Shown piece after piece: positions 1-52,568 of a DNA stretch of 64,000 nt; the first letter of the stretch is position 1; each line of letters starts with the position of its first letter. The translations under genes and the position numbers were made by a program. The notes under the pieces are model-generated. The model did not search any database, was not told the DNA's origin, and was given only the letters and a program-made list of their open reading frames with translations. The stretch is taken from assembly GCA_951406725.2 (NCBI GenBank), contig OX597820.1, positions 63,178,001 to 63,242,000 on the forward strand, given 5' to 3'. Source of the stretch: Octopus vulgaris (taxonomy: Eukaryota).

Positions 1-694
1 ACTCTGAGTTTCAGATGCCGAAGTGGAAATCCACAACACCATCTCTTCGGTTATCTGGCTATTTGAAAACGTTATGAAAAAATACCGTTAAAAATGAAGG
101 GAAATTACTCTGTTATAACTCTGCTTTGCCTGCGTACTTATACATCGCTCGCATTTTTCGTCATAAAAATTATATAAAAATACATAAAAATATATAAAAT
201 ATATAAAATCTTCTTGGGACATAACACAGAAAGCATGTTCTATCCGTTTTCTTTAGGGGACCAAAAACGTAACAGAAATTTAGTCACATGTGGGCATGAT
301 CCGAAAAGCTCTGTCCTTGTATTTAGACCTGGCTTATCTGGAAAAGCAGCTTAGACCCTACCACATGTCTAAATACAAGGACAGAGCTTTTCGGATCATG
401 CCCACATGTGACTAAATTTCTGTTACGTTTTTGGTCCCCTAAAGAAAACGGATAGAACATGCTTTCTGTGTTATGTCCCAAGAAGATTTTATATATTTTA
501 TATATTTTTATGTATTTTTATATAATTTTTATGACGAAAAATGCGAGCGATGTATAAGTACGCAGGCAAAGCAGAGTTATAACAGAGTAATTTCCCTTCA
601 TTTTTAACGGTATTTTTTCATAACGTTTTCAAATAGCCAGATAACCGAAGAGATGGTGTTGTGGATTTCCACTTCGGCATCTGAAACTCAGAGT
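1..694. repeat. Long fold-back palindrome: 328-bp arms (1-328, 367-694) with a 38-bp spacer; may extend beyond the window start
   Basis: 1-328 (actctgagtttcagatgccg...gtccttgtatttagac) is the reverse complement of 367-694 (gtctaaatacaaggac...catctgaaactcagagt). No mismatches seen by eye. Confidence 0.95.
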
Positions 695-701
695 TTTATC
701 T
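639..701 (+). ncRNA. Candidate minimal type-I hammerhead ribozyme (variant core)
   Basis: Stem I AGATAA(639-644)/TTATCT(696-701). Core CCGAAGA (U4>C). Stem II GATG/CATC plus one extra T, then GAAA (683-686). Self-complementary stem III ACTC-A-GAGT, cleavage triplet GTT. Confidence 0.5.
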
Positions 702-723: not shown

Positions 724-777
<54 letters not shown>

Positions 778-840
778 GGAGATATACTTGCATAGCTAGT
801 AACTTGATCTAAGATCGTGCGCTAGAGCGAAAACAACTGC

Positions 841-1088
841 AGCGTGGAAGGTGTTTTGAAGCCATTTAAGAAACACACAAAACCGTTAGATTCGCTTCAA
901 CATTTAAATTTAATTTGTAAAACTATTTTCGTCGCTTTGAAACCGCGACCAGGTCACTGACAAAACTGATGCAGCACGAAGTTTTGTCAGTGAACAGGTC
1001 GCGGTCTCAAAGCGACGAAAATTTAAATGTTGAAGTTAATCTAACGGTTTTTGTGTGTTTCTTAAATGGCTTATAAACACCTTCCATG

Positions 1089-1090
<2 letters not shown>
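841..1090. repeat. Imperfect ~250-bp palindrome (fold-back, PLE-terminus- or MITE-like), followed directly by (TA)n
   Basis: agcgtggaaggtgttt...cactgacaaaact pairs with agttttgtcagtg...aaacaccttccatgct. ~12-bp spacer; the right arm has a ~20-bp deletion. Confidence 0.9.
983..1020 (+). ncRNA. Hammerhead-like motif with swapped G3-C8 core; mirrored copy on the - strand at ~914-964
   Basis: TTTGTCA-GTGAACA-G-GTCGC-(9 nt)-GCGAC-GAAA. The mirrored arm reads TTTGTCA-GTGACCT-G-GTCGC..GCGAC-GAAA-ATAG-TT-TTACAAA and supplies stem III and stem I'. Confidence 0.45.
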
Positions 1091-3526: not shown

Positions 3527-3757
3527 CATATATATGTATGTATATACATATGTATACATATGCATGCACACACACGCACGCTCACTCATATATATATATA
3601 TATCTGTAAATAAAATATGCGACAATTATTCGGTAGCCATCATAAAAATCCGAGTTTTATCCCACGCCGGCATCTCTTCAGTTATCAGGCCATCAACAAA
3701 ATGCATACACACACACACACACAAACACAAACACAAACACAAACACACACACGCACT

Positions 3758-4589: not shown

Positions 4590-5315
4590 CTATTTAAAAT
4601 ATTTTAAAGGTTTGATTTTTGAATGAATACAAGACAGACCCAACTCTATTTGATAATTTAGTACATTTTTTTTTCTATACTTTAGAATCTCGTATGTCTT
4701 CATGGAACAGAGTTGACAGCCTACCCTATTATTTCTATAACTACCCATTCTAACTATTACCCATTTTAGGTTATATTTAATATTATTAGTTTTGAGTTCC
4801 CAAATTTTACTGGAAAGTGTAGTGCAACCTGCTTTAGGATCTAATCGGAAAGAGGAGAGATGATTGCTAAATCTCTGTTTAAAATTAATAGTACAACCCA
4901 GGTAAAAATAGTTACTATAAGAAGTTGTTTTAGTACATTTATAGATTACGTTATGGACCGAACAACGACCAGATGCCGGACATTTTGACTTAATCCTACA
5001 ATTGCAACTAGGGGGATAATTTTCAGATTTAGAATTATTTAAGGACAGATCTCTCACATTGCTGCTATTCAAATTATTATGAATATTATTTTCGTTATTA
5101 TAGGTAATATTGTTATCCAAAGTGGGGTTATTATTTATTGATATGTTTCCACTATCATTTAGATCTACCATAACAATATCACAATTACCTACATTATTGA
5201 TATTGCTATTATTATTATTTGTATTTATATCCAAGTAATTATTACTGCTATAGATATAATTGTTATCCTCATTCTCGATATTATTTCTAATTGTATTATC
5301 TTTATTTTTATCATT

Positions 5316-5321
<6 letters not shown>
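4590..5321 (-). mobile_element. Penelope-like retroelement 3' fragment: Asn-rich linker plus GIY-YIG endonuclease
   Basis: CNCRIKSKCPASGRCSVHNVIYKC...YFYLGCTINFKQRFSNHLSSF...LSSKIWELK...CQLC matches the PLE Cys-rich linker plus VIY-YLG motif. The 5' end runs into (TA)n. Confidence 0.85.
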
Positions 5322-5385
<64 letters not shown>

Positions 5386-5395
5386 GCATGTATGT

Positions 5396-5590
5396 ATTTG
5401 TCTCCCCACCGTCGCTTGACAAACGACGAGGTGTATTTACGTCTCCCTAACTTAGCAGTCCGACAAAGGAAACCGATAGAATAAATTAAATAATAAGCTT
5501 ACAAAGAATAAATCTTGTGATCGATCTGTTCGACTAAAGTCGGTGCTCCAGCATGGCCACACTCAAATGACTGAAACAAGTAAAATAATG
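5396..5590 (+). mobile_element. SINE family B, 3' half; a 5'-half fragment lies at ~3908-4005
   Basis: Matches 42995-43190 (cgcttgacaa...ggtgctccagcatggcc...aaatgactgaaacaagtaaaa). Confidence 0.8.
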
Positions 5591-8939: not shown

Positions 8940-10545
8940 TTTAACCTTATTTCAAACAACCTGTAGTAAGAAGCTTGCTGGAATGTCAAACAACAGAGAT
9001 ATTGATTGAATCAGCGTGGTCTGCTTTTAAAAATGTTGTATTTGAGTCATTTGTGGAACACTCAGGTATGGAAAGAGAAAGCACCAAGATTGATTCCATT
9101 TAAATGATCGAAACCTCTCTCCTCTTTTGGAAAATATGCACAAGTGCCGCTGACAATGGATGTTAAATAAAAATAATGCCACAAAACGCATTATAAAGGC
9201 CAAAATTACAGGTCAATCTCAACAGAGGGAAATGATAAAGATATGGTTGCAAAAGAAATCACAAGAGCTGCAGATTGCTCCGGACAGATGTGATACCAAT
9301 TCATTCTATTATAATTTAAAGAATGCCTTTGAACCTGTGTTTGTTGGCTCAGCTCCCATAATTTCAATTGGGGGTAATCTTCTGACAGATGAAAAAGGAC
9401 ATCCCGAAGCGCTGGAGAGGACATTTTTCAAGTGTTCTGAATATGAACTCAATTGTTGATGAAAAACTGATCAAAGAGGCCTGTCCTTAAAGCACTGTTA
9501 GTTGCACCATCAAATACTGAAATAAAAGTAGGCCATAAAATAGCTCATGAATAGAAACATGTCTGGGAACGATGGCATACCAACCGAGACATATTAAGGT
9601 GGTAGCAAAGCCCTTCTGAACAAATTATATAAAACTATTCTCAATCTGGGATCAGGATCAGTCCCACAAAAGTTTAAAAGCGCTTCTACTGTTCATGTTC
9701 ATTAGCACAGAGGTAACATATGTGAATGTGACAACCATAGAAGTCTCTCCTCTCTGTATGTTGCCGGGAAGTTCCTTGGAAGGGTTATCTGAAGCAGACT
9801 CAATGATATCCTTGCCAGCTTAGTGTTGCCTGAATCTCAGTGTGGCTTTTGAACTGTAGATATGATTTTCAACATAAGGCAACAGCAGGAAAAGCCTCAT
9901 TAGCAAACCGAAACGTTTTTGTCAATTCTGTAGATCTAACTAAAACTTCCGTCACCCCATCTAGGGATGCTCTTCGGGTTTAGAAAGCTAGGTGTTCCTG
10001 AAAAGTTGCTCAAAATCATCATTTCTTTCCATCAAGGGATGACAGCTTCTATCAGATATTGCGGGTAAATGTCCGATTCATTGACAGTCTCAAATGAGAT
10101 AAAACAAGGCTGTGTTCTTGCACGCCTCGTATTTGATTTGTATTTCTTTGTCATTTAGGAAACTGCGTATAGGGTTAAAGAAAGAATAAAGTTTGAGTAA
10201 AGTACTTGTGGAGGCATGTTCAACCAACAGAATTTCAAAACAATAACTAAAACTGGTGCAAACAGTTCGAGATTTACTCTCCGCGGACTGTTGTGGACAT
10301 GTAGCACACGTCCTTGAAGACATGCAGCAAATTCTAAACAACGTCCCGCGTTCATCGAAGCCTTTTCGTTTGATCAACAGCATAATCCTGTCCAATAGAT
10401 CATTCGTGACCATCCTCCCTCTGTTGCCCCTATTGTATATTCTGATGGGAAAGTAGTAAAAACTGTTTCTTCCTTCATTTATTTTGCTTCCATTGTGTCC
10501 AGTGATGTTAAGATGGTTAAAGAAATTGACACGTAACATATCAAC
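8940..10545 (+). mobile_element. Degenerate RTE-clade LINE (linker plus reverse transcriptase remnant)
   Basis: Broken frames give REMIKIWLQKKSQELQ..DTNSFYYNLK, SGNDGIPTE, DNHRSLSSLYVAGKFLGRV, PESQCGF, IKQGCVLA and DLLSADCC, i.e. RT motifs in RTE order with many stops and frameshifts. Confidence 0.8.
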
Positions 10546-12017
10546 CTTGTAACGTTTAAGCCAAAATATCCAAAGGATAGAAAAATATTCTGGCTTTTTT
10601 TAAATTCTGAGTAGATGCCAATAAATTACAGAAGAAGGTAGCAGCATTTTTTAGAGTACTAATAGTTTTGAGCGACATTGATAGTAATCACTGTACTCAA
10701 TTAAAGGAAGCCGTATTATGTGTAGATGGAATTTAAATTCGTTGAAAACATTCAAGAGATGAAATTAACTTATCTTGCGGACAAATATTTAATAATATTC
10801 ACGACAATGACTGCTTGTTTAGAGATTTATCACTCTTGATTGATAACATGAATCTGGGTACCTCTCATGATAAAGCCGTAATGCATATATGCAACAGATG
10901 TTGCACTTTCATGGTTGTATTCTTAGCGGCACATTACAGGAATACTAAACATGCATAAGAAAAAAACCCAGTTTCGTTGAAATACTGAAATGCCTGGTGA
11001 AATTGTTCATCTTACCTCAAAACAAATAAGAACATATTTTTCATCATTAACTGTAGGCAGATGTGTGCCTTCGGAAAGAAACATAACTGTGACAGCGGTT
11101 GTTCTAATGTTAATAAACATTACGGCCATAACAGAGGTGGAGTCGAAAAGGAAACATTGTAAAATGTGGAAAGAAAACAGGAAAATAATATTTCGTAAAA
11201 CAAATGATGAGCAAGAGGAGGAGAACAAAGAGAAGGAAGGTGACGGTTGTGAAGGTAGTGGTGTTGTTGGTGTTGATGATGATGATGGTGATGGTGGTGG
11301 TGATAATGTTGACACTAACCCTATCAATGACAAAACGAACAGTAATAGTAGTGTAATAAAAAACAGAAAACAGCAAAATCAGGGTTAACAAAAATGAGTA
11401 TAAAGGGGAAGTGAAAAAGATAGAGAAATAAGATAGTCGACATTGAGGCAAAATTACATGACTGAAAATGCAAGAAAGGAAAATATTAAAGAAGATCAAC
11501 AATAGAAATAAAAACTCCAAAACGGCGATTGAAAGAGGAGAAATATTGAATTCAATAGAACGAAAATTATCGTAAAAGAAATTAAGAAAACATTCGAGAA
11601 ACAAGCTTTGAAATACAGTCTTCAAGAGAATGAATAAAAGGGCAGGCATTGAACTGCATTTACTTGTGATCTGAAACATAATTATGCATCTGAACGTATT
11701 GTATCCCTGGAGTGTGTATATAACACCTATAACAGATGTGGTGAAAGACATTTCAATAAGGAGCTTACCAATAATTGGGGCACCTGATAATGCAAACACT
11801 TTTCGAGAAATATTGAAGGAAAATTAAGAGAAATTTATAACAGAGTTTCAGTTTCAACATATATATTTTGTTGATGGCATTCAAACAAACAGAAATTCAA
11901 TTTCACAAGTAAAAATGCCTAAACACAAGATTTGTAAGAAATTCTTCATAAATACAATTCTTATATCAACAGATTCTTGGTATACTTTACAATGCACTTC
12001 AACGCTGAATTTTCAAA

Positions 12018-12222
12018 TTGACATCGTTTCCGGCAATAAACACAGAGGGAGGATATGTCTATCGATTTAATGTTCTTGAGTGTAATGAAGCGACAATTAT
12101 TATGGCTCGAGATAATAGCAAACGAGATATTGATTTAAAGTGTCGTGACTGTAGCATTAGATTCATAAATGATTCCTGTCGTTCATACGATGCTTACAGT
12201 ATCTGTAGCTTTTTGTCAACAG
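12018..12222 (+). pseudogene. Candidate Cys-rich exon remnant of an unidentified gene
   Basis: TSFPAINTEGGYVYRFNVLECNEATIIMARDNSKRDIDLKCRDCSIRFINDSCRSYDAYSICSFLST followed by donor gtaaat. FNVLEC resembles FNLLEC at ~7590-7608. Confidence 0.25.
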
Positions 12223-13780
12223 GGTAAATGTAAATCACTTAGGTTTTCCACAAGTCGGTGGTGGAGTTTACTTAAAAAACCCGCGTGTTTATTGCGATTT
12301 ATAAGTCTATCGTTAAACAAAATTAACGAATTTTCAATCAGAGCAATTTGTCTATTCATCTTTATAACTATCAAAATTCATTTTCACGTGCTTTTTAATC
12401 ATATACGTGCCCAAACAGAGTCGGAGGTCTCCACCCCTGGGAAACACCCATATCGAGAAGAACTATTATTAGAGTCTTATATAAACGGTATCATATGGAT
12501 AGATTTCGGTGATGTTGGTATTCTTCCATGTTGTTTTACAAGAAGCTTCTAAAGCTCTTATATTTTCGTTCCTTTTACTTTAATGTAAATTGAAATTAAA
12601 TCAAAATATTTTCCAAGATGGCTGCACACCGAAAGACCAAACTAATATCAAACTGTTGGACCTTGTATCAGTTTCATATATATTTTTACAAGTAAATTAG
12701 GATTTGTACAAAATGGCATAAAAAAGCTGTTCACATACATTTCAATATATTTCAATTAGATATATTTCAATTCCATTTATCCTATAACGGCGCCAGAAAT
12801 TTCTACCCAACAAAAATAACAGAACTTACCCAAATGGGAAATTGCACATCGTTTTGGTTGCCTCAGGTTAAAGCATAAAACACAAGGTTCAACAAAAGGT
12901 TATTCTAAGAATTATATGAGAGGAATACAAAATGATGAGCGTGGATATGTATAAAAATGAACCCTACCAGACTGAGCTTTTGATGTTAAAGTTAGGTATC
13001 ATGTCATTGGTAACCAATGAATATTGCTTTAGTGCACTTTTAGCTGAAGCATATGACACACATAACTATGAACCGCTGTAATGTTATAATTCCTCAAATA
13101 TAGTTGTGAGTATATTTGCAAGACTTTTGATAATGAAATATTTAGACTCGATCTCACGATGAAAACACGCACTTCCATATATGGCGGTATTTTTGTAACA
13201 ATGGAAACTTTTGGAAGGTATGTGTTTTCTCTAGTCACGAGATGTATACTCACGTGAATAGCAAACTGTTTGCTCATAGATTAGATTATAAATATATTTA
13301 CGGGAGAAATTGCAGCTCTGATCTAACCTAGCATCAATCAAATAAACAGCTGTGTTTTTCAAGTTGACAAAAGGTTGACAAAATGTCTATTTTCCACCAA
13401 TTCTGTGGTATAATCAATTTCTGTCATATTATACGTAGAACGCCTAACAATCGAATTAAAAGAGCTGTTAGTTTTAGAGTTCTTACTCTAACATAACGTG
13501 TCGGCAGAATCGTTATGAGGCCGGGCAAAATATTTAGAGATATTTACTCCATTTTTACATACTGAGTTCAAATACTACCGAGATTTACTTTGTCTGTCAT
13601 CATTTCGTGATTGATAAAATAAGTTAGGCATAGGGGCCGTGTTAATCACCCAAATGTTTTGGCTTTGAGCCAAACTTTGAAACAAATACAGAATACGATT
13701 TGCCAGTAATGTGGGAATGATGTAAACGGTACCTCAAATTCACCATGGAGTATTTTACTAAAGATTATTTCTTCATGAGA

Positions 13781-22320: not shown

Positions 22321-22366
22321 TTTTTTTGATAAGGTTCATTTCAGGAACTGAAACATGTTATAATGT
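22321..22366 (+). ncRNA. Hammerhead-like motif with U3-A8 core (weak stem I)
   Basis: TTGATAA (22326-22332)-GGTTC-ATTTCAG-GAACT-GAAA-CATG-TT-ATAATG, with a palindromic CATG stem III. Stem I is only partly paired. Confidence 0.35.
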
Positions 22367-27499: not shown

Positions 27500-29340
27500 A
27501 AATCAGAGCCAAGACTCCAAAACTATTATAGACTCACAATAAAAATTACATGTAAGCAATGCATTGAACATAGTAGAGATAGGTTTACTTTTGATAGGCT
27601 TCTTTATTAAGACGAGCTTCTGTTGAGATCCACTCAGCAAACTTATACAGAGGGAATATATAGAACTGTGGTTGCAATTGTTTTGCACATGCATCAAATA
27701 TGATCGCTGAGATGTATCTGGCGATATTGTGGTGAAGCTATTTGTTTCCGGTGCACTGTACAGCGGTGACGGATAGAATTTTCTGTACTTCTGATATAAT
27801 CTTTTTGGCAGCCCGAGGATTTGATCACATAAATTAGATTTTCGGACGCACAAGTGAAATCTGATTTGATTGTAAAGTGTTGCACTTGTTTGAAATGGCA
27901 TTTTGACCCTTCCAAAAGGTTGGGGCATGTCCACAGTAAGAGCGATTACAATTTTTCCAGTTTTGCGTTGGCGGTATTTGGAAGTAATTTTGTATTTATT
28001 AGTATTTTCTTTCATGACTTGGGCTGTTTGTTGCTTTTGATTATTTTAAGGTAACGTAGAATTCTTTTCAGTTTAGGGTCCTTACCTAGTATTGGTAGGC
28101 TTTGCATGATTCTGTTCAATGCTTCTTTGTTTCTGGGGTTGTATGTTAATATGTAGCATAATGTTTTTTAGAGTAGGTTTGTTGTTGTCTTTTGTTTTTC
28201 TTAGTGCCTCAGTATTAATGGATTTCGCACCTTTTACCCCTTCGTTTATAAGTTGGTTTGGATAGTGCCTGTCCAGGAATATGTTTTTGAGTTCTTGTAA
28301 TCTTAAATCCCTGGCATTTTTCCCCGAAACGATAGTGCAGATCCTTCTCGCAAGATTGAAGGGGTGTTTGCTTTCGTATGTCTCGGGTGACAAGAGCTAA
28401 AGAGAAGGTATTGCTTAGCATCTGTCGTTTTATAAAAGATATCTGTTTCTAATATGTTGTTGTTGTTTGTGTGCTTTTTTAATAGTATGTCCAGGATGGT
28501 AGTTCTTCGTGGTTGTATTCTACAGTAAATTGAATGTTTGTGTTGATGCTGTTTACGAGTGTTTTGAATTCCAGGAATTTGTTTATGTTTTTATTCCATA
28601 GTATGAAACAATCGTCTAAAAGTCTCTTTCCATTTTCCGTTAAGAATTGGGCGAGAGAGTCTCCAAGTTTTAGCAGTGATTTCTGGTACATTGTTTGTTC
28701 TAAGACTCCCATTGTAAGATTGGCAATCGTAAGTGCTGCGTTCGTACCCATCGCAATTCCAGATTTTTGGCGGTAGAAGGTGGTATCAAACATGAAGTAA
28801 TTATTACGGAGGATACATTTTCTGGATTCAATGATGAATTCTTTGTTCATTCGTTCTTGTATTTCTTCTGGATATTGTTCCAGCCAGAATCGAATTGCTT
28901 CTAATTATGTGGTAGGTTGGAATCTAAGTTCATGACATCGAATGTAACCATGAATGGTTATTCCTCAGCCTGTTCTGGGAGGTGGTGCAACATATCCAAA
29001 TCATCTCTGATATAACCTTTAATGTGTTTTAGGTATGGCTTCAGGAGAATGTCTATGAAGCAACTTAATCGGTGGGTCTCAAAGGATGGGCCAGATATGA
29101 TGGGTCGTAATTTTAGGTCTCCTGGTATTGGTGTATGTATGTTTGCATTACGTTTTTGATGGTGTCGTCAATGCTTAGGATTTTGTGACTTTTAAGAAGA
29201 CCATAGAATATACTGGGTTTACATTTGAAATTTGTCATGGTATCTGTTTCTTTGTAAGGTCTTTTTCATGGGCTTGAACCAGTGGGAGTAGGTTTTTCAT
29301 TGTTTTTTGGAGAATTGTAGTTGTTGAGTTTTTCATACTA
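27500..29340 (-). mobile_element. Penelope-like retroelement, decayed RT plus GIY-YIG ORF
   Basis: Ordered motifs KPSIFYGLLKSHK, LKLRPIISGP, VTFDVMNL, NNYFMFDTTFYRQKSGIAMGT, RLLDDCFILW, IQFTVEY, PFNLARRICTIVS and FTCASENLIYVIKSSGCQKDYIRST, split by frameshifts. Confidence 0.9.
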
Positions 29341-34961: not shown

Positions 34962-35197
34962 CTATCTTATCTATCTGCTCACAATGGACGGACGCTAGTC
35001 ATATCGGCTCCACGTAAGTTGGCCACTTCTACATGTTTAAAACTCCTTGTTGTCAAATATTTTGTTTTAATCGTTGTGCAAGTTCATTCACTAAAAAACC
35101 TGAGAATTATTCACGTAGAATTCCGCCCCTGTATGGGCGAAATTACAAAAAACTTTCAAAACTTTCGTGGGTTTTTTAGCCATTTTTCATTTTTAAA

Positions 35198-37193
35198 ATG
35201 GCAACTAGAAACCACGTGGCTAGCCCGCCAGTCATGCAGAACGGTAGCAAAACACTATTGCTACCACTAGCTGCTAAACATCGCAGGGTGAACACCGCTG
35301 TCACCACCATCACTACCACCACCAACAACAACAACAAAACTAACGTCGCATTCACCATCGCCGCGACCAAAGACATTAACTTAGATTTCCCCTCACTCCC
35401 CACACCACTTGTTGATGATAAAGGGACGGAGAAAGGGATTTCAAAAATGAATACAAACGAAAACATGAATGCCAGCACCACCACCATCACCACCAACAAC
35501 AACAACAACGAAATTGGCACAAAGCCGCCTACCAAAGACAACACCGCCAACACCAACACCACTACTACGACGTCAAATGCTACATCTAAGCCTTCTGCTG
35601 CTAATACCGCCAACACCAACACCACTACCATGACTTCACCTGCCACAATTAACACTTCTACTGCCAAATTCAAAACGAATTTTGCGGACGTAACAAAACA
35701 AAAAAGAACAATTGTAACATTCACCACACAAGAGATAAACCGCACAAAGGCACTCTTCTCCAAAGAAGGAGACAAATTGCACCTTCACATTCCACAACAC
35801 ATCGTGGAAAACACACACAAAAAAACAATAATTTATAAAGTAATAAACAAGAAAACAAGAAGAACAGAAAATGCACCGCAGGAAAAAATCGAAAAATGCC
35901 TTCGTCCTGCATGGGACTCCAAGGAATATATCAGTTGGGGAAACAAATTTGGTACAGTCCAAGTACGTTTCCTCAACGAAAGTTTAGCAAAACGTTTTTC
36001 CACATTGGAGCTGCATTCGGACGACTTGGTAATGATACCAATCTATTTAAACAAAAGGGTCACGAAAGTCCAAATAAAAAACATACCACTTGAAGTCGAA
36101 ACACAATGGTTGGTCTCTGCCATCTGCTTTGAAATGACAGAGACAATGTCAGAGACAAACATCCTTGAAATCGCGGTTCTAGGAGAGAAAGACTATGTGG
36201 GCAAATCAATCGAATTCCTGCTTCAATTGGATGAAGCAGCAAGAGAGAAGATACCCACCGCTATAGAACTGCCAGGAGGCTACAAACTCTATATAGTGGT
36301 AGAGGGCAGGCGACCACGCTGCTATTTGTATGGAAGCGAAACACACTTGAAAAAGACGTGCCCAACCACTGCACACCAAGAGCAACAACAACAACCACTA
36401 CCACAACCAAAGCACTCCGGAAAAAAGCTCTACTACCCACACCACCATCAACACAGAAGACGACAAGAGAAGCACACCAAGCTAATCCGTCATCAACCAA
36501 AAACCACTCAACACCTGAAAAAATACCAACACCACCAACAACAGCAAAACCCAAAGGAACAGAAAAACAAAGAAAACACACACAAACTGATCCCCCATCC
36601 CTTATACCGCACTCAACACACACAAACACTCAACAACCAACAACAACGAAAACAACAACACAACCACTTACACAGACATACATAGAAGCCCACAACATAC
36701 CCCTACCCCTACTGATTCCTCAGAAATTTCGTCGGAAGACGAAACCAGTGAGGAATGGCAAATAGCTACAAAAAGAAGGAAAATAAAGAGCAGAAACACA
36801 ACCAAACCAAATGCAAACACGAACAAAGCAGGGGGAAATACATCTCACGAAGACATTTCAAAACCCAACGCAAACAACAGCCACACCAACACCACAAAAA
36901 TATATACAGCAAACATGCTCACAGCTATAGACACCAAAAACACAAATTTGATGGAATACATCCAATCAAAAACAAACATAACAGAAGATGACATAAAAAC
37001 AAACAATCACCCATACACAACACCACCAGACCACATCAAAATATTACACATCTCCAAAAGTCTGCACCACACACTCAAAGGCATTTTCCCCAGCGCGGTT
37101 GGTAAATGCCAAAAATATCTCACAAAGAAACTGTACTGGGATCTCCTCGAGGACAAACCAAAAGAGGAGAAAGCAAAAACTTTCGAGCAGTAA
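35198..37193 (+). CDS. Tx1-like ORF1 (nucleic-acid binding, zinc knuckle), with two apparent frameshifts
   Basis: KVQIKNIPLEV (RRM-like) and IVVEGRRPRCYLYGSETHLKKTCP (CX2CX4HX4C with C>Y). Continues through frames 36358-36765 and 36915-37193, with shifts near 36390 and 36710. Confidence 0.75.
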
Positions 37194-37237
37194 GTAACCC
37201 TCTGTTCCTTTCACTTGTATTCTAATTCATTAGGACT

Positions 37238-40200
37238 ATGATCAAGATTGGTTGTGTAAATGCGCGTGGCTTGGGGTCCCCTTGGAAACAAGGGTACCTC
37301 TTAAATGACATAAAGTCACATAAGTTAGAAATCATAGCCATAAGTGAGACCAGACTCCACAATCCGCGGGCCCTAAAGACCATGTTTGGCGGACAGTTCA
37401 ACATTTATTTTTCCCCCTGTCTGCCGAGAATGGGCGGTAGTGGCACCGCGGTACTTTTTCACAAGAGTCTGGATCTCAAAGTAAGGACAATATTCGTAGA
37501 CCCGGAGGGTAGACTGGTCGTCCTGGATGTCGACGGCAGCAATGGGTGCGCTTTTCGACTCGTATCAGTCTACACACCGCCCTTAACAGGTCGGGCGGAT
37601 TTCTTTCAACGTCTAGAAGTATTCTTGGGAACGTCTCGTCCTTTACTCTTAGTGGGGGATTTGAATGCTACCTTGGACACGCATGTAGACTACGTGGGTA
37701 GAGAATAGACGGGGATGCAAATGCCTCAGAGACCTGCTCAGACGCTTTCAACTGTCTGACAAGTTCCGACTAGACCACCCGAATGCGCCAACGTGGACAT
37801 GGAGCAACCGCATCGGGTCGTCGAGATCGTATCTAGATAGGATACTGTGTAGGACAGTAGACAGAGATAGCATAGGATGTCCACAATTCCACATAGTCAG
37901 CTACACGGATCACAAACTTGTGACATGTACGCTAGACTTAGGTAAGACACTTAGGCAGGGTCCTGGATACTGGAAACTAAACGCGACTTTCCCATCGAGA
38001 CAGGTTTTCAGAGACCGGATTAGCACACTAGTAAAGAGGGCTTTGACGGGAGCCATCATCAACAACAAATGGTGGTTTGCCCTCAAGAGAGCAGTAAAAG
38101 CAGAAGCGATTAGGTACAGCAAAGCACTAGCCATAGATAGAAATAGAGTAGAGGGTGAGCTAGTTAAGAAGCTAGAAGAGGCAATTAGAAGCGGCATCGC
38201 ATCCGACGTTTTGGCGGCGAGGTTGGTCCTCGACCAACACTTCAACGCCAAACACGAAGGATGTGCTGTCAGAGCTAGGATGCGTGCTCTAAGGAACGAA
38301 GGTGTTGGAGCCGCGAGAGAGGCCCGGGTGGCAGAGGCGCAACAGGGCAACAAAGCCACCATTCGGTCCCTGGTAGATGAACAGGGGCGCGAATTGCTCG
38401 AGCCAAGTAAAATGTGTGAGGCCTTTCAGCAGCATTTTGCCCGACTGTTCGGAACGAGTGGAGGGCAAGAACGTAGGGTGGACTTCAGTGCCTACCTACA
38501 TAGCCTACCACGACTCTCGACAAGAAAGGCAGGGTGCTGCGAAGGTGCCATCACGGCGGCGGAAGTGCAGGAAGCGATGGCAGAATGCTCGAGGGACAAA
38601 TCACCGGGTTTGGATGGTCTACCCTACGAGCTTTACAATTGTATGCCAGACTTGTTTGGAGATCTCTTGGCGGCGGTGTACTGCAACTGGCAGAAAAACG
38701 GGAGCATTCCTGGTTTTGTGAGCCGAGGAGCCGTAACACTGCTGAAGAAAGATCTAAACAAGGGAAATGTAATAGATAACTTTAGGCCCATCACTCTGCT
38801 TATTGCAGACTTGAAAATTTTGGCCAAGGTGCTAGCCAAGAGGTTGGCGCTTGTCATCGAGAAACTGGTCGACAGGGCGCAAACATGCGCCGTGCCAGGC
38901 CGGACCATCCATGACAAACTCCACCTGATGCGCTACATCATAGACAGGATAGTTAACGAACCTGGCATGGGTGGGGCGCTGATCAATTTGGATCAATCGA
39001 AAGCTTTCGATAGGGTGGACCATCGATACTTGGAGGCGGTCCTCGGAGCGGCTGGCTTCGGTCCCGTCTTCCGCGGCTGGATAGCCGCTTTGTACAGAGG
39101 CATCCGTTCGGTAATTCGCGTGAATGGACATCTATCGAGACCCTTCGACATCGCACGTTCGGTCCGTCAGGGATGCCCCCTCTCGTCGCTTCTATACGTA
39201 TTGACTCTCGAGCCATTATTGCGGAAGCTGGCAACCTTGAGAGGCATCCCGCGAGAACTGGGATGCGGGACGAGCGTGTCTGCATACGCGGACGACGTCA
39301 CCGTCATAGTGTCTAGCCACGAGCACATCGAGCAGGTCGGCGAGACACTGAAAAACTACGAAGCGGTGACAGGAGCGAAAATCAACCGGGAAAAGTCAGT
39401 GGGCTTGCGACTAGGCACCTGGAGAAGCAAGCCCATGCCGTCCACCAGCGCCTCCGTCGTGGGACGCTGGACCGACGACCCGGTTGAGTTGCTCGGGGTC
39501 TGGTTTGGTCCGGACCTCCAAGTGGAGAAGAACTGGAACGAGATAACGAGTAGGGTGGTCACTCTCGCCCGGCAATGGGCCGAGAGGAAACTGTCCCTAA
39601 AAGGTCGGAAGGAGGTGGCGAACACGTACATCGCGTCCGTCATCTACTACCGCCTGACCGTCGTACCTTGTCCCGACCCTACCATCACCAAACTACAACG
39701 CATTCTCTTTCGCTTCTTGTGGAAAGGATGCGTCCCGATGGTCAGGCGATCCATTTGCTGTCAACACCCGTTAAAAGGAGGGCTGGGCATGTCGTGGTTG
39801 ATGATGCGCAGACACGCGCTGAGACTGCGACATCTCTGGCTCTATGTAGACGACGGTGAGCAGGTGTGGTCGCCGTTTGTGAGGCACGCTTTCCCGCAGC
39901 TCGTCTCCATGACCGAACTGCAGTCGTGGATCAAAAAGAGGCCGAAGAAGGGCGAATGGCACCGCGAGTGTCGCGTTGCTCTCAAGCAACTCTGCCGTCC
40001 TGGGTCGACCTTGAGTGACTTCATCACAACCAAAGCATTCTATTGGGGTTTAGTGGAGGGGAGGTACGACGACGAGCTCGGGGCGAACCTGGACGTCGAC
40101 GAGGAGTACCTGACCCGCCTATTCAGGACGACTTTCGGGCCAGGGCCCATGGACAACTTCCAGAGATCCCTGGCCTGGCAGTGCTACCGAGAAGCGCTAC

Positions 40201-40670
40201 CCGTTCGGGATAAGCTCTACAGACACGGCTCGAGAAACACGGGGCCGACCTGCCCGAGATGCGGTCAGAGCGACGAAACCGTTCTGCACGCACTCGTGCA
40301 GTGTCCGACAATTTCCGACCTGTGGGCTTATGTCGAACAACTGCTGTCACGTGTGGGACGAGTCGGTTTATCAGCTGAGTCTATCGTCAATATTGTCACG
40401 CCTCCCTCCTTCAAACGGGAAGGAAGAGCTATTTTCATCATCCTTGTGGCTATGGCGAAAGAATGTATCTGGTGGACGCGTCTGAAAGGATTGGAGACAA
40501 ACACTTTCCTCTCTGGTCAATCTCTCATCAACTTCTTCAAGTACCACTTGAAAAGGAAAGTGAGAGTAGAGAGGCAAGTTTTGTCTAGCGAATGTTTTAA
40601 AAAAAGATGGGTGAATGTAGCAAGAATGGCACGTATGAATGACGAAGCCACCTTGAGCATGATCCTATGA
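37238..40670 (+). CDS. ORF2: APE endonuclease, reverse transcriptase and C-terminal CCHC; one frameshift near 37700
   Basis: NARGL, ISETRL, VGDLNA, then in the shifted frame TWTW..SYLDRIL..YTDHKLV. RT motifs KSPGLDGL, FRPITLL, DQSKAFDRVDH, VRQGCPLS, YADD; C-terminal CPRCGQSDETVLHALVQC. Confidence 0.93.
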
Positions 40671-50860: not shown

Positions 50861-51605
50861 GTTAGTTAGTTAGTTAGTTAGTTAATTTTGGCTCAAAAGC
50901 AAATAGCAAGGCCATGTAGGGGGACATGGAGTTAAGTACAGGGTGGTGTTCATGTAAAGAGTTCAGGCCACTTGAGGTCAAGGGAGACTTTGAACAAAGT
51001 GGCCGTCGGCATCTTCACCATCTCGTCTGGCAGCTTGTTCCACGGATCCGCAACCCGGACGGAGAAAGCTCCTCTCCTTCGATTGAGATGAAATTGTCGC
51101 AGGTAGAGCATTTCGGAATGACCCCGCAGCCGACGCTCTGGAGCAAGAGTGAAGAACAGCTCTTTCGAGAGGTTACACTTTCCGCTTATGATGTTGTGAG
51201 CGAGAATGAGATCACCACGGCGGCGGCGTTTTTCTAGAGAATAAAGGTCGAGCGTCCTCAGCCTTTCTTCATAAGACAAATTTTTGAGACCATGAACCAT
51301 GCGGGTAGACAGCTTCTGGACTCTTTCGAGATGCTGTATGTCTTTGAGGAGATAAGGAGAAGAGGCTTGAATCCCGTAATCCAATATGGGTCTCACCAGC
51401 GTGACATAGAGTGGTAGGAATATGGCTGCTGTGAGCATTCCGAATAACCGTCGAATCAAGAACAGAATTCCGCGTGCTTTGTTGGCAGCATGGACGCACT
51501 GGGCCGAAGGCGAAAAGGAGGAATCCACCAAGATACCCAGGTCCTTTACCTGATCGGTCCTCTCCAGCAGCAGACGACCCGGCTCGAAATCAAGTTGAGT
51601 TGCAA
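50861..51605 (-). mobile_element. 5'-truncated CR1-clade LINE 3' end with a (TAAC)n tail
   Basis: KDLGILVDSSFSPSAQCVHAANKA...LYVTLVRPILDY...LERVQK...YEERLRTLDLYSLEKRRRRGDLI...FSVRVADPWNKLP. Short 3' UTR and (GTTA)n on the + strand at 50861-50884. Confidence 0.92.
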
Positions 51606-51731
51606 GGCACACACATACACCACACACACATATACATATATATAGAGAGAAAGAAGAGAGTAGATAGTCAGGCAGACAGATAGATAAATAAATAGATAGG
51701 TAGGTAAATAGATAGATAGATAGATAAATAA

Positions 51732-51811
<80 letters not shown>

Positions 51812-52568
51812 GACAGTGACTACTTCAATAATACAGTACTATAAATATATTATTCATTAATGTATTATTAGCAGCATTAGTGTTTATTATCAGACGCTTG
51901 CTCGTTCTAGAAAGAAACGTGTTGTACACGACAGAAGCAGAATTGAATTACATTCGCCAAATACCGCAGTGACTGTGCTGTTTCAGTTGCGGGAACAGTC
52001 AGGAAAGTTTCCGCAAAACCAGTGAACAAGTCTATCAGGTGATTTTATCTTAAACAATTACACAGCTTCATGCCATTTAACAGTGTGTATACCTTTACTA
52101 TGATACACATACGCGATTGTAGGGATTGTGGTGCCTTAAATTACAGTTACAAAATTTCATATCTCATTTCGCTACCTGCTCCGAGTAATAAATATTAATA
52201 TCCAAATGTGACCAGGTATGATGTTAGATCATGATTGTATTTGGTTTAATTCAAGCACAACAATAATAGCAAAACGCAGCAATACAAATATCAATGTTGG
52301 TATCGCACCTTCATCTAAAATAAAGCAAAAGTGTAGACCTGAGGTTATTTTTTTAGAAATAAGAAATAAATGATTATATAAATATTTGGGACAGACATCC
52401 ATAATTGCGTGTTTACTACTTATTATTATTAAATTTATTCTATTTTGTGATTTGAGTCAACATAGATTACAGTTTAATAACTATTCCGCAATCGCTTTTT
52501 TCCCTGATTTTGCGCTGCATACATGTCCTTAGTCACAGTCTGTGGAAGTTTTTTTCTTTTTCTTCCAG

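Follow-up and report, generated by a model that had tools for sequence, protein, structure and literature searches.

Near one end of a 64,000-nt stretch of Octopus vulgaris DNA (hereafter, the window) lies a palindrome in which each arm resembles a hammerhead ribozyme with the C3-G8 pair of the catalytic core replaced by G3-C8 (positions within the motif are numbered according to the general hammerhead convention). The exchange of this pair is the standard laboratory proof of the hammerhead tertiary pair. The locus raises the question of whether the exchange also exists in nature, as the settled state of a repeat family, and whether a hammerhead built in this way would cut.

Two Damaged Copies of One Unit, Head to Head

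Alignment of the minus strand of the left arm with the right arm showed the near-palindromic region 841–1090 to be a single unit present twice. In its full extent (781–1090), the locus holds two copies of one repeat unit of ∼125–185 nt, arranged head to head between (TA)n tracts at 728–774 and 1090–1148. The left tract is the likely insertion target, a preference for (TA)n having been reported for Penelope-like elements (PLEs) of the Hydra and Naiad clades (PMC8557442). The left arm (841–967, minus strand) is an inverted copy that lacks the first 12 bases of the unit, and the right arm (968–1090, plus strand) is a sense copy that begins at the fixed 5′ start of the family; this start was placed from loose contig ends at 965/967 (consensus at 967), from the joints described below, and from the alignment. 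A 17-nt stretch after GAAA is missing from the right arm, and the left arm extends ∼60 nt farther, through a one-sided 3′ extension of the unit (the tail; 781–840, minus strand) that is absent from the right arm. The palindrome described in the initial annotation is thus present, but its limits of 841–1090 were drawn too narrowly, with ∼60 further bases of the family at 781–840 and (TA)n on both flanks. No third copy of the unit was found within the 64-kb window. The surrounding DNA is AT-rich and of animal type, with abundant microsatellites.

The right arm carries the 5′ part of a hammerhead motif (983–1020, plus strand), consisting of the 5′ strand of stem I (983–989), a GTGAACA core (990–996, with G3 at 990 and C8 at 995), an extra G (997), a 5-bp stem II (998–1002/1012–1016) that opens with G10.1-C11.1 and encloses a 9-nt loop, and GAAA (1017–1020). 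The 17-nt deletion that follows takes out the 3′ half of stem III, the cut site, and the 3′ strand of stem I. In the left arm (914–964, minus strand), every part is present, with G3 at 957, C8 at 952, stem II at 949–945/935–931, GAAA at 930–927, and a predicted cut site between 921 and 920. Its lesions are a U at A9 (951), a G at 16.2 (923), and a U at position 1.2 of stem I (919). The order of parts first proposed for both arms, namely stem I, GTGA(A/C)C(A/T), G, GTCGC..GCGAC, and GAAA, is indeed found in the sequence, and each arm is damaged in a different place, as had been claimed. The literal CUGANGA core is absent, its place being taken by GUGAACA, and the three-stem layout of a type I hammerhead is incomplete in both arms.

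The predicted fold energy of each arm is no better than that of its own shuffles, and the RNA of the whole region was predicted to form a single hairpin (−159.5 kcal/mol). Because both arms are damaged and the RNA would fold into one long hairpin, this copy is not a working ribozyme; it is dead. The palindrome does not belong to the ribozyme itself but represents a head-to-head insertion of PLE type, whose long hairpin, as modeled, would block the hammerhead. None of the ten Rfam matches on 780–1090 was to a hammerhead, the scan being of the damaged copies rather than of the family form, and none was found among the 150 listed of the 249 matches in the window. Rfam matches to miRNAs were rejected as real miRNAs, since they reflect only the long hairpin.

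Several other elements were observed in the window. A first palindrome (1–694), clipped by the window start, has 331-nt arms that are 100% complementary, and arms identical to this degree indicate either a very recent insertion or a fold-back in the assembly. It ends in a hammerhead-like motif of its own (639–700, plus strand), in which stem I has 6 bp, core position 4 is a C, GAAA is preceded by one additional base, and stem III, of 4 bp closed by a 1-nt loop, resembles the Hydra-clade rows of File S2 (PMC8557442); a short tail and then (TA)n follow. A weak relative of this end (3613–3693, minus strand; blastn E 0.003–0.13) adjoins (TA)n and has a canonical CTGAAGA core with a damaged stem II. 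The frame at 4590–5498 (minus strand) has a GIY-YIG-like endonuclease end (Pfam PF01541, E 0.038, below the cut-off), looks by eye like the Hydra-1_Obim endonuclease (PMC8557442), and is probably a truncated PLE. At 22326 (plus strand), a U3-A8-type core with a 5-bp stem II, GAAA, a palindromic stem III, and almost no stem I may be either a decayed hammerhead motif or a chance occurrence. A 141-codon frame (28479–28904, minus strand) gave no Pfam match; by its motifs, it looks like a fragment of a PLE reverse transcriptase. A near-complete LINE (35180–40670, plus strand), presumably L1/Tx1-like, comprises ORF1, an endonuclease-like frame, and a 993-codon RT frame (RVT_1 E 2e-30, zf-RVT). By eye, the regions 1260–1800, 10090–12552, and 50950–51819 look like pieces of mariner/Tc1 transposase and a CR1/L2-type RT end.

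The Majority Form of the Repeat Family

Part of the stretch is contained in 20 of the 24 public sequencing runs listed, under four organism labels. Six runs that were taken by guess to be RNA contain a share of 0.24 of its sequence words, which speaks neither for nor against expression. When one run per label was matched to 781–990 (at least 80% likeness, with a 2% threshold for variants), 3,336, 5,822, 4,817, and 3,280 contigs matched the unit. The four labels probably amount to fewer than four independent lineages: the window itself may derive from one of the runs, labels A and C appear closely similar, and X1 and X3 each contain a contig of ∼1,094 nt with an equal span and an equal number of differences. 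Summed contig depth was not equated with copy number, for which thousands is a rough guess.

Comparison of the family with the left arm revealed which of its letters are peculiar to this locus. Across the four runs, the majority letter opposing each left-arm lesion reached 97%–99% at 951, 98% at 953, 99%–100% at 923, and 95%–99% at 919; the lesions are private to this copy. At the core positions 957 (G3) and 952 (C8), no variant of at least 2% was present among the 40 of 43 variant rows listed, and G3-C8 therefore looks fixed in the family. The consensus predicted from the two arms, TTTGTCA-GTGAACA-G-GTCGC-N9-GCGAC-GAAA-N4-TT-TGACAAA, corresponds to the majority letters in all four runs, with ATAT as N4. 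Pairing of this consensus in stems I and III had been set beforehand as a test, and both stems were recovered: stem I has 7 bp and stem III has 2 bp or is palindromic, with a stem II of 5 bp between them. The minimum-energy fold of the majority form contains stems I and II, with pair probabilities of 0.93–1.0 for 11 of the 12 pairs and 0.71 for the outermost, and the 10 nt of the stem III region form a perfect palindrome. A Watson-Crick 3-8 pair, U4, G5, A6, A9, G12, A13, A14, A15.1-U16.1, and H17 are all in place, and the majority form has the complete three-stem type I layout and every feature of a PLE minimal type I hammerhead except C3-G8. The contigs of the four runs and the fold of the majority form hence support the suggestion of a repeat family with a G3-C8 core, and they agree with the further suggestion that only its consensus is intact, the majority form having all the parts while both arms here are broken.

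These data also bear on whether the motif resembles a hammerhead by chance or the palindrome arose as a fold-back artifact of assembly, as might be argued from the lack of an Rfam hammerhead match, from the artifact-like 100% identity of the arms in the adjoining palindrome (1–694), and from the inability of either arm to fold better than its shuffles. However, a minimal-hammerhead descriptor that allows any Watson-Crick 3-8 pair and a palindromic stem III is satisfied by the majority unit, and none of 20,000 dinucleotide shuffles satisfied it even when relaxed. Moreover, the two arms differ by the 17-nt deletion and several substitutions, and contigs from X2 and X3, with 3–11 gaps, span the center of the palindrome. 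The contig and shuffle results largely refute chance or artifact, which we regard as barely credible.

Inside the motif, five non-CpG polymorphisms were found, four of which are tolerated by the structure: a change of U-A to a U·G wobble at 918 (20%–33%), changes at 939 and 941 in loop II, and one at the extra nucleotide (950). The fifth, A>G at 919, breaks stem I and reaches at most 2.7%. CpG-type changes at G12, at C11.1, and in stem II occur at 1%–4%, as expected for the decay of individual copies after insertion. Within the family contigs, which are very uniform and whose variant tables carry no linkage, no two-sided compensatory change was found at any pair of the motif, the only related event being the one wobble-making change. 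Covariation at 3-8 exists only against other hammerhead families. The signs of selection from the polymorphisms are thus weak, and the swap itself is a stronger argument for selection than their pattern. By our own rough estimate, two random changes among the 13 conserved core letters would produce a Watson-Crick 3-8 swap in ∼0.4% of cases (1/78 × 3/9), a value to be read in the knowledge that many families exist.

Architecture of the Insertions

Contigs that depart from the reference at 965/967 number 119, 169, 174, and 135 in the four runs; they share 12–14 nt and then pass into unrelated flanks. This shared departure places the fixed 5′ start of the unit at position 968, with stem I 12 nt and the cut site 47 nt downstream of it. 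Nine of the 15 joints listed (of 39 in all) link a left arm that ended at 851–930 to 967–970. The joints are single contigs with short sides (21–24 nt), but they follow one recurring pattern, a variable-length inverted copy adjoining a full sense copy. Clustering of the inverted-arm ends at the cut site was considered for those at 914, 916, 918, 922, 926, and 930 and was rejected, as none of the joints listed ends exactly at 920. No clear head-to-tail junction, the arrangement that a dimer needs and that gives PLEs their direct pseudo-LTRs, was found among the 15 of 39 joints listed; the 843–967 joint, a candidate, was dismissed, the 32 letters on one of its sides being compatible with a head-to-head junction only.

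The tail (781–840) is covered by family contigs at far lower depth than the body of the unit, with shared majority variants at 811, 820, 824, 827, and 837. A 31-codon frame (773–865, minus strand) extends through the tail from an ATG located ∼55 nt beyond the predicted cut site. It has one stop in the window, at 811, where most contigs read another letter. Searched as a short query with X at the stop, it gave no protein matches, and it could be the start of a parent ORF or a chance frame. The repeat unit contains no ORF for the telomerase-like RT and GIY-YIG endonuclease of a PLE.

Long inverted arms and TA flanks would be compatible with a foldback or MITE-type DNA transposon, in which case the palindrome would represent long terminal inverted repeats, the insertion would have occurred at TA, and the hammerhead would be captured or incidental. 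The arms of a MITE are expected to be fixed and symmetrical. Such terminal inverted repeats were not observed: among the joints listed, the inverted arms of other copies end variously (851–930) yet join one fixed start (967–970), more than 100 contigs per run pass from the fixed start into unrelated flanks, and the tail is one-sided. A transposon of this kind is therefore considered very unlikely.

The inverted arm that precedes the sense copy, the tail confined to one side, and the microsatellite target instead match PLE insertions as reported by Craig et al. (2021, PMC8557442), which carry a 5′-truncated, inverted copy at their 5′ end and a tail on a single end and favor (TA)n as target. The tail is up to ∼60 nt long here versus the 30–40 bp reported for PLEs (PMC8557442). 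A PLE protein was shown to start reverse transcription inside its RNA, with the tail lying between two RT starts, and to use uncleaved RNA as its main template (Frangieh et al., 2024, PMC11167929). Of six motif terms, four relating to the core or 5′ start and two to the 3′ part, none occurred in the Naiad, Chlamys, and Hydra consensus files of PMC8557442.

Taken as a whole, the locus is probably a decayed head-to-head pair of a short high-copy repeat. In its family form, this repeat would be a type I hammerhead of the minimal kind in which G3-C8 is fixed, likely derived from the pseudo-LTR of a PLE and likely capable of only weak self-cleavage, as a dimer or with the help of protein. A PLE protein would copy the transcript from an internal start 80–140 nt past the cut site back to the 5′ end of the RNA, which would yield an insert of ∼125–185 nt with an optional tail, and template jumping would add the inverted, 5′-truncated arm. 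Copying from an internal RT start to the RNA 5′ end would explain both fixed ends as well as the optional tail. Since the copies retain the whole hammerhead and start 47 nt upstream of the cut site, they appear to have been made from uncleaved RNA. Restoration of the 3-8 pair is the probable reason why the swap became fixed in the master element. In loop II, the two arms (941 versus 1007) carry different alleles of a common family polymorphism (minor form 16%–40%), a weak hint that two different template RNAs gave rise to them.

Expected Cleavage by a G3-C8 Core and Relation to Known Hammerheads

Mutants with the same core have been studied in the laboratory. In the PAc hammerhead, cleavage is lost with either C3G or G8C alone and returns in part when the two are combined (PMC11167929). 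A complete pairwise scan identified the G:C swap as the sole rescuing double mutant in that motif (PMC9901934), and in a review, G8C is given as causing a 10^5-fold drop that is partly rescued by C3G. Even when the core is normal, minimal PLE hammerheads cleave weakly and depend on dimers (PMC4209133). Judged from these rescue data and from the weakness of the minimal PLE hammerheads, cleavage by the family form would most likely be weak and conditional. When two strands were folded together, an alternative duplex (−32.0) was predicted to be 5 kcal/mol more stable than the designed dimer hammerhead (−27.0).

The main rival to weak, conditional cleavage is an inactive relic derived from a PLE, in which the fold is real by descent, G3-C8 is practically without activity, and the family spread with no need of cleavage. 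Such a relic would be in keeping with the observations that insertion in vitro does not require cleavage and that no RNA-seq ends were found at the PAc cut site (PMC11167929), that the swap rescues only partially (PMC11167929 and the review), and that activity is low in minimal PLE hammerheads whose core is normal (PMC4209133); the start of the copies 47 nt upstream of the cut site, and so their origin from uncleaved RNA, points the same way. In contrast, the majority form keeps all other core letters and the three stems, where a drifting relic would more likely have acquired uncompensated lesions, and the common subfamily change in stem I preserves pairing. An inactive relic is considered unlikely, though far from negligible, and weak, conditional cleavage is the preferred reading.

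The motif shares most of its features with the minimal hammerheads of metazoan PLEs (Cervera and de la Peña, 2014, PMC4209133): type I topology, an extra nucleotide between A9 and G10.1, the G10.1-C11.1 pair, GAAA, a UH cut site, and a tiny palindromic stem III (15.2-16.2 plus loop 3), as in the Drosophila-type variants. Those hammerheads sit in pseudo-LTRs, and their copies are mostly dispersed, with some close pairs on opposite strands, as here. However, none of the 56 motifs in Fig. S3 of that paper has G3-C8 (53 have CUGA and 3 UUGA), the only covariant named being U3-A8, and no flanking PLE ORF is seen at the repeat unit here. PAc (Poseidon of Anolis; PMC11167929) resembles the present family in the partial activity of the same swap, engineered as C3G/G8C, and in its layout, where the hammerhead lies close to the 5′ end of the RNA, the 3′ end is fixed, and a tail may or may not be present; unlike in PAc, the swap here is natural and apparently fixed across a large family. 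The Hydra and Naiad clades show the same (TA)n bias, inverted 5′-truncated copy, and one-sided tail, and the Hydra-clade hammerhead lies ∼100–200 nt from the 3′ end, which is similar here (PMC8557442). In File S2 of Craig et al. (PMC8557442), however, all 34 rows have ctga cores and none has G3-C8. Moreover, the Hydra stem III comprises 3–4 bp closed by a short loop, and GAA is frequently preceded by an additional base (PMC8557442); the present motif differs in these respects. Metazoan non-LTR retrozymes (PMC7761336; bioRxiv 10.64898/2026.07.22.740005) are likewise short noncoding repeats with a type I hammerhead that are likely moved by PLE proteins. They form head-to-tail tandems from cut site to cut site, whereas the unit here starts 47 nt upstream and occurs singly or head to head, and at this locus no head-to-tail tandem is found, the two copies being head to head with no third in the window.

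A natural change at 3-8 is known in the form of U3-A8 (Perreault et al., 2011, PMC3088659), which is likewise compensatory at the tertiary pair and is the only natural 3-8 covariant named in the available parts of the literature examined. U3-A8 involves two transitions and G3-C8 two transversions; the latter is not named in the core-variant section of PMC3088659. In the open literature accessible here, G3-C8 was found only in laboratory mutants; a natural form may have been described elsewhere, most likely by Lünse et al. (2017), which by its title concerns PLE hammerhead variants. Scans for the exact motif returned no match in JGI metagenomes or in prokaryotic genomes. Two narrow stem II patterns matched five loci in IMG/VR, none of which passed the type I/III stem test or Rfam. 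The viral locus L001, the sole match to the family stem II in a scan of viral sequences, lacks stems I and III and was judged to be a chance match. The hammerhead type itself is known; judged by sequence, the natural, family-wide G3-C8 variant of the PLE-type minimal hammerhead is apparently new.

An otherwise perfect PLE-type motif in a large and uniform family provides a clean natural sequence with G3-C8 against which the mutants can be compared. The G3-C8 family also bears on the role of the hammerhead in PLEs. That positions 3 and 8 still pair after two transversions speaks for selection on the fold, while the presence of the entire motif in the copies suggests that any cleavage must be weak or conditional. 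Descriptors of the form "cuganga," as used in PMC8557442, miss the GUGAACA core. Tentatively, the family may represent an active natural G3-C8 hammerhead at very high copy number in an animal lineage, in which the swap would act as a built-in brake that keeps most of the RNA uncut for reverse transcription. The short copies would then be an in vivo record of PLE copying from the RT start to the 5′ end, and surveys based on CUGANGA would be blind to whole families, perhaps including PLE clades that have been called ribozyme-less.
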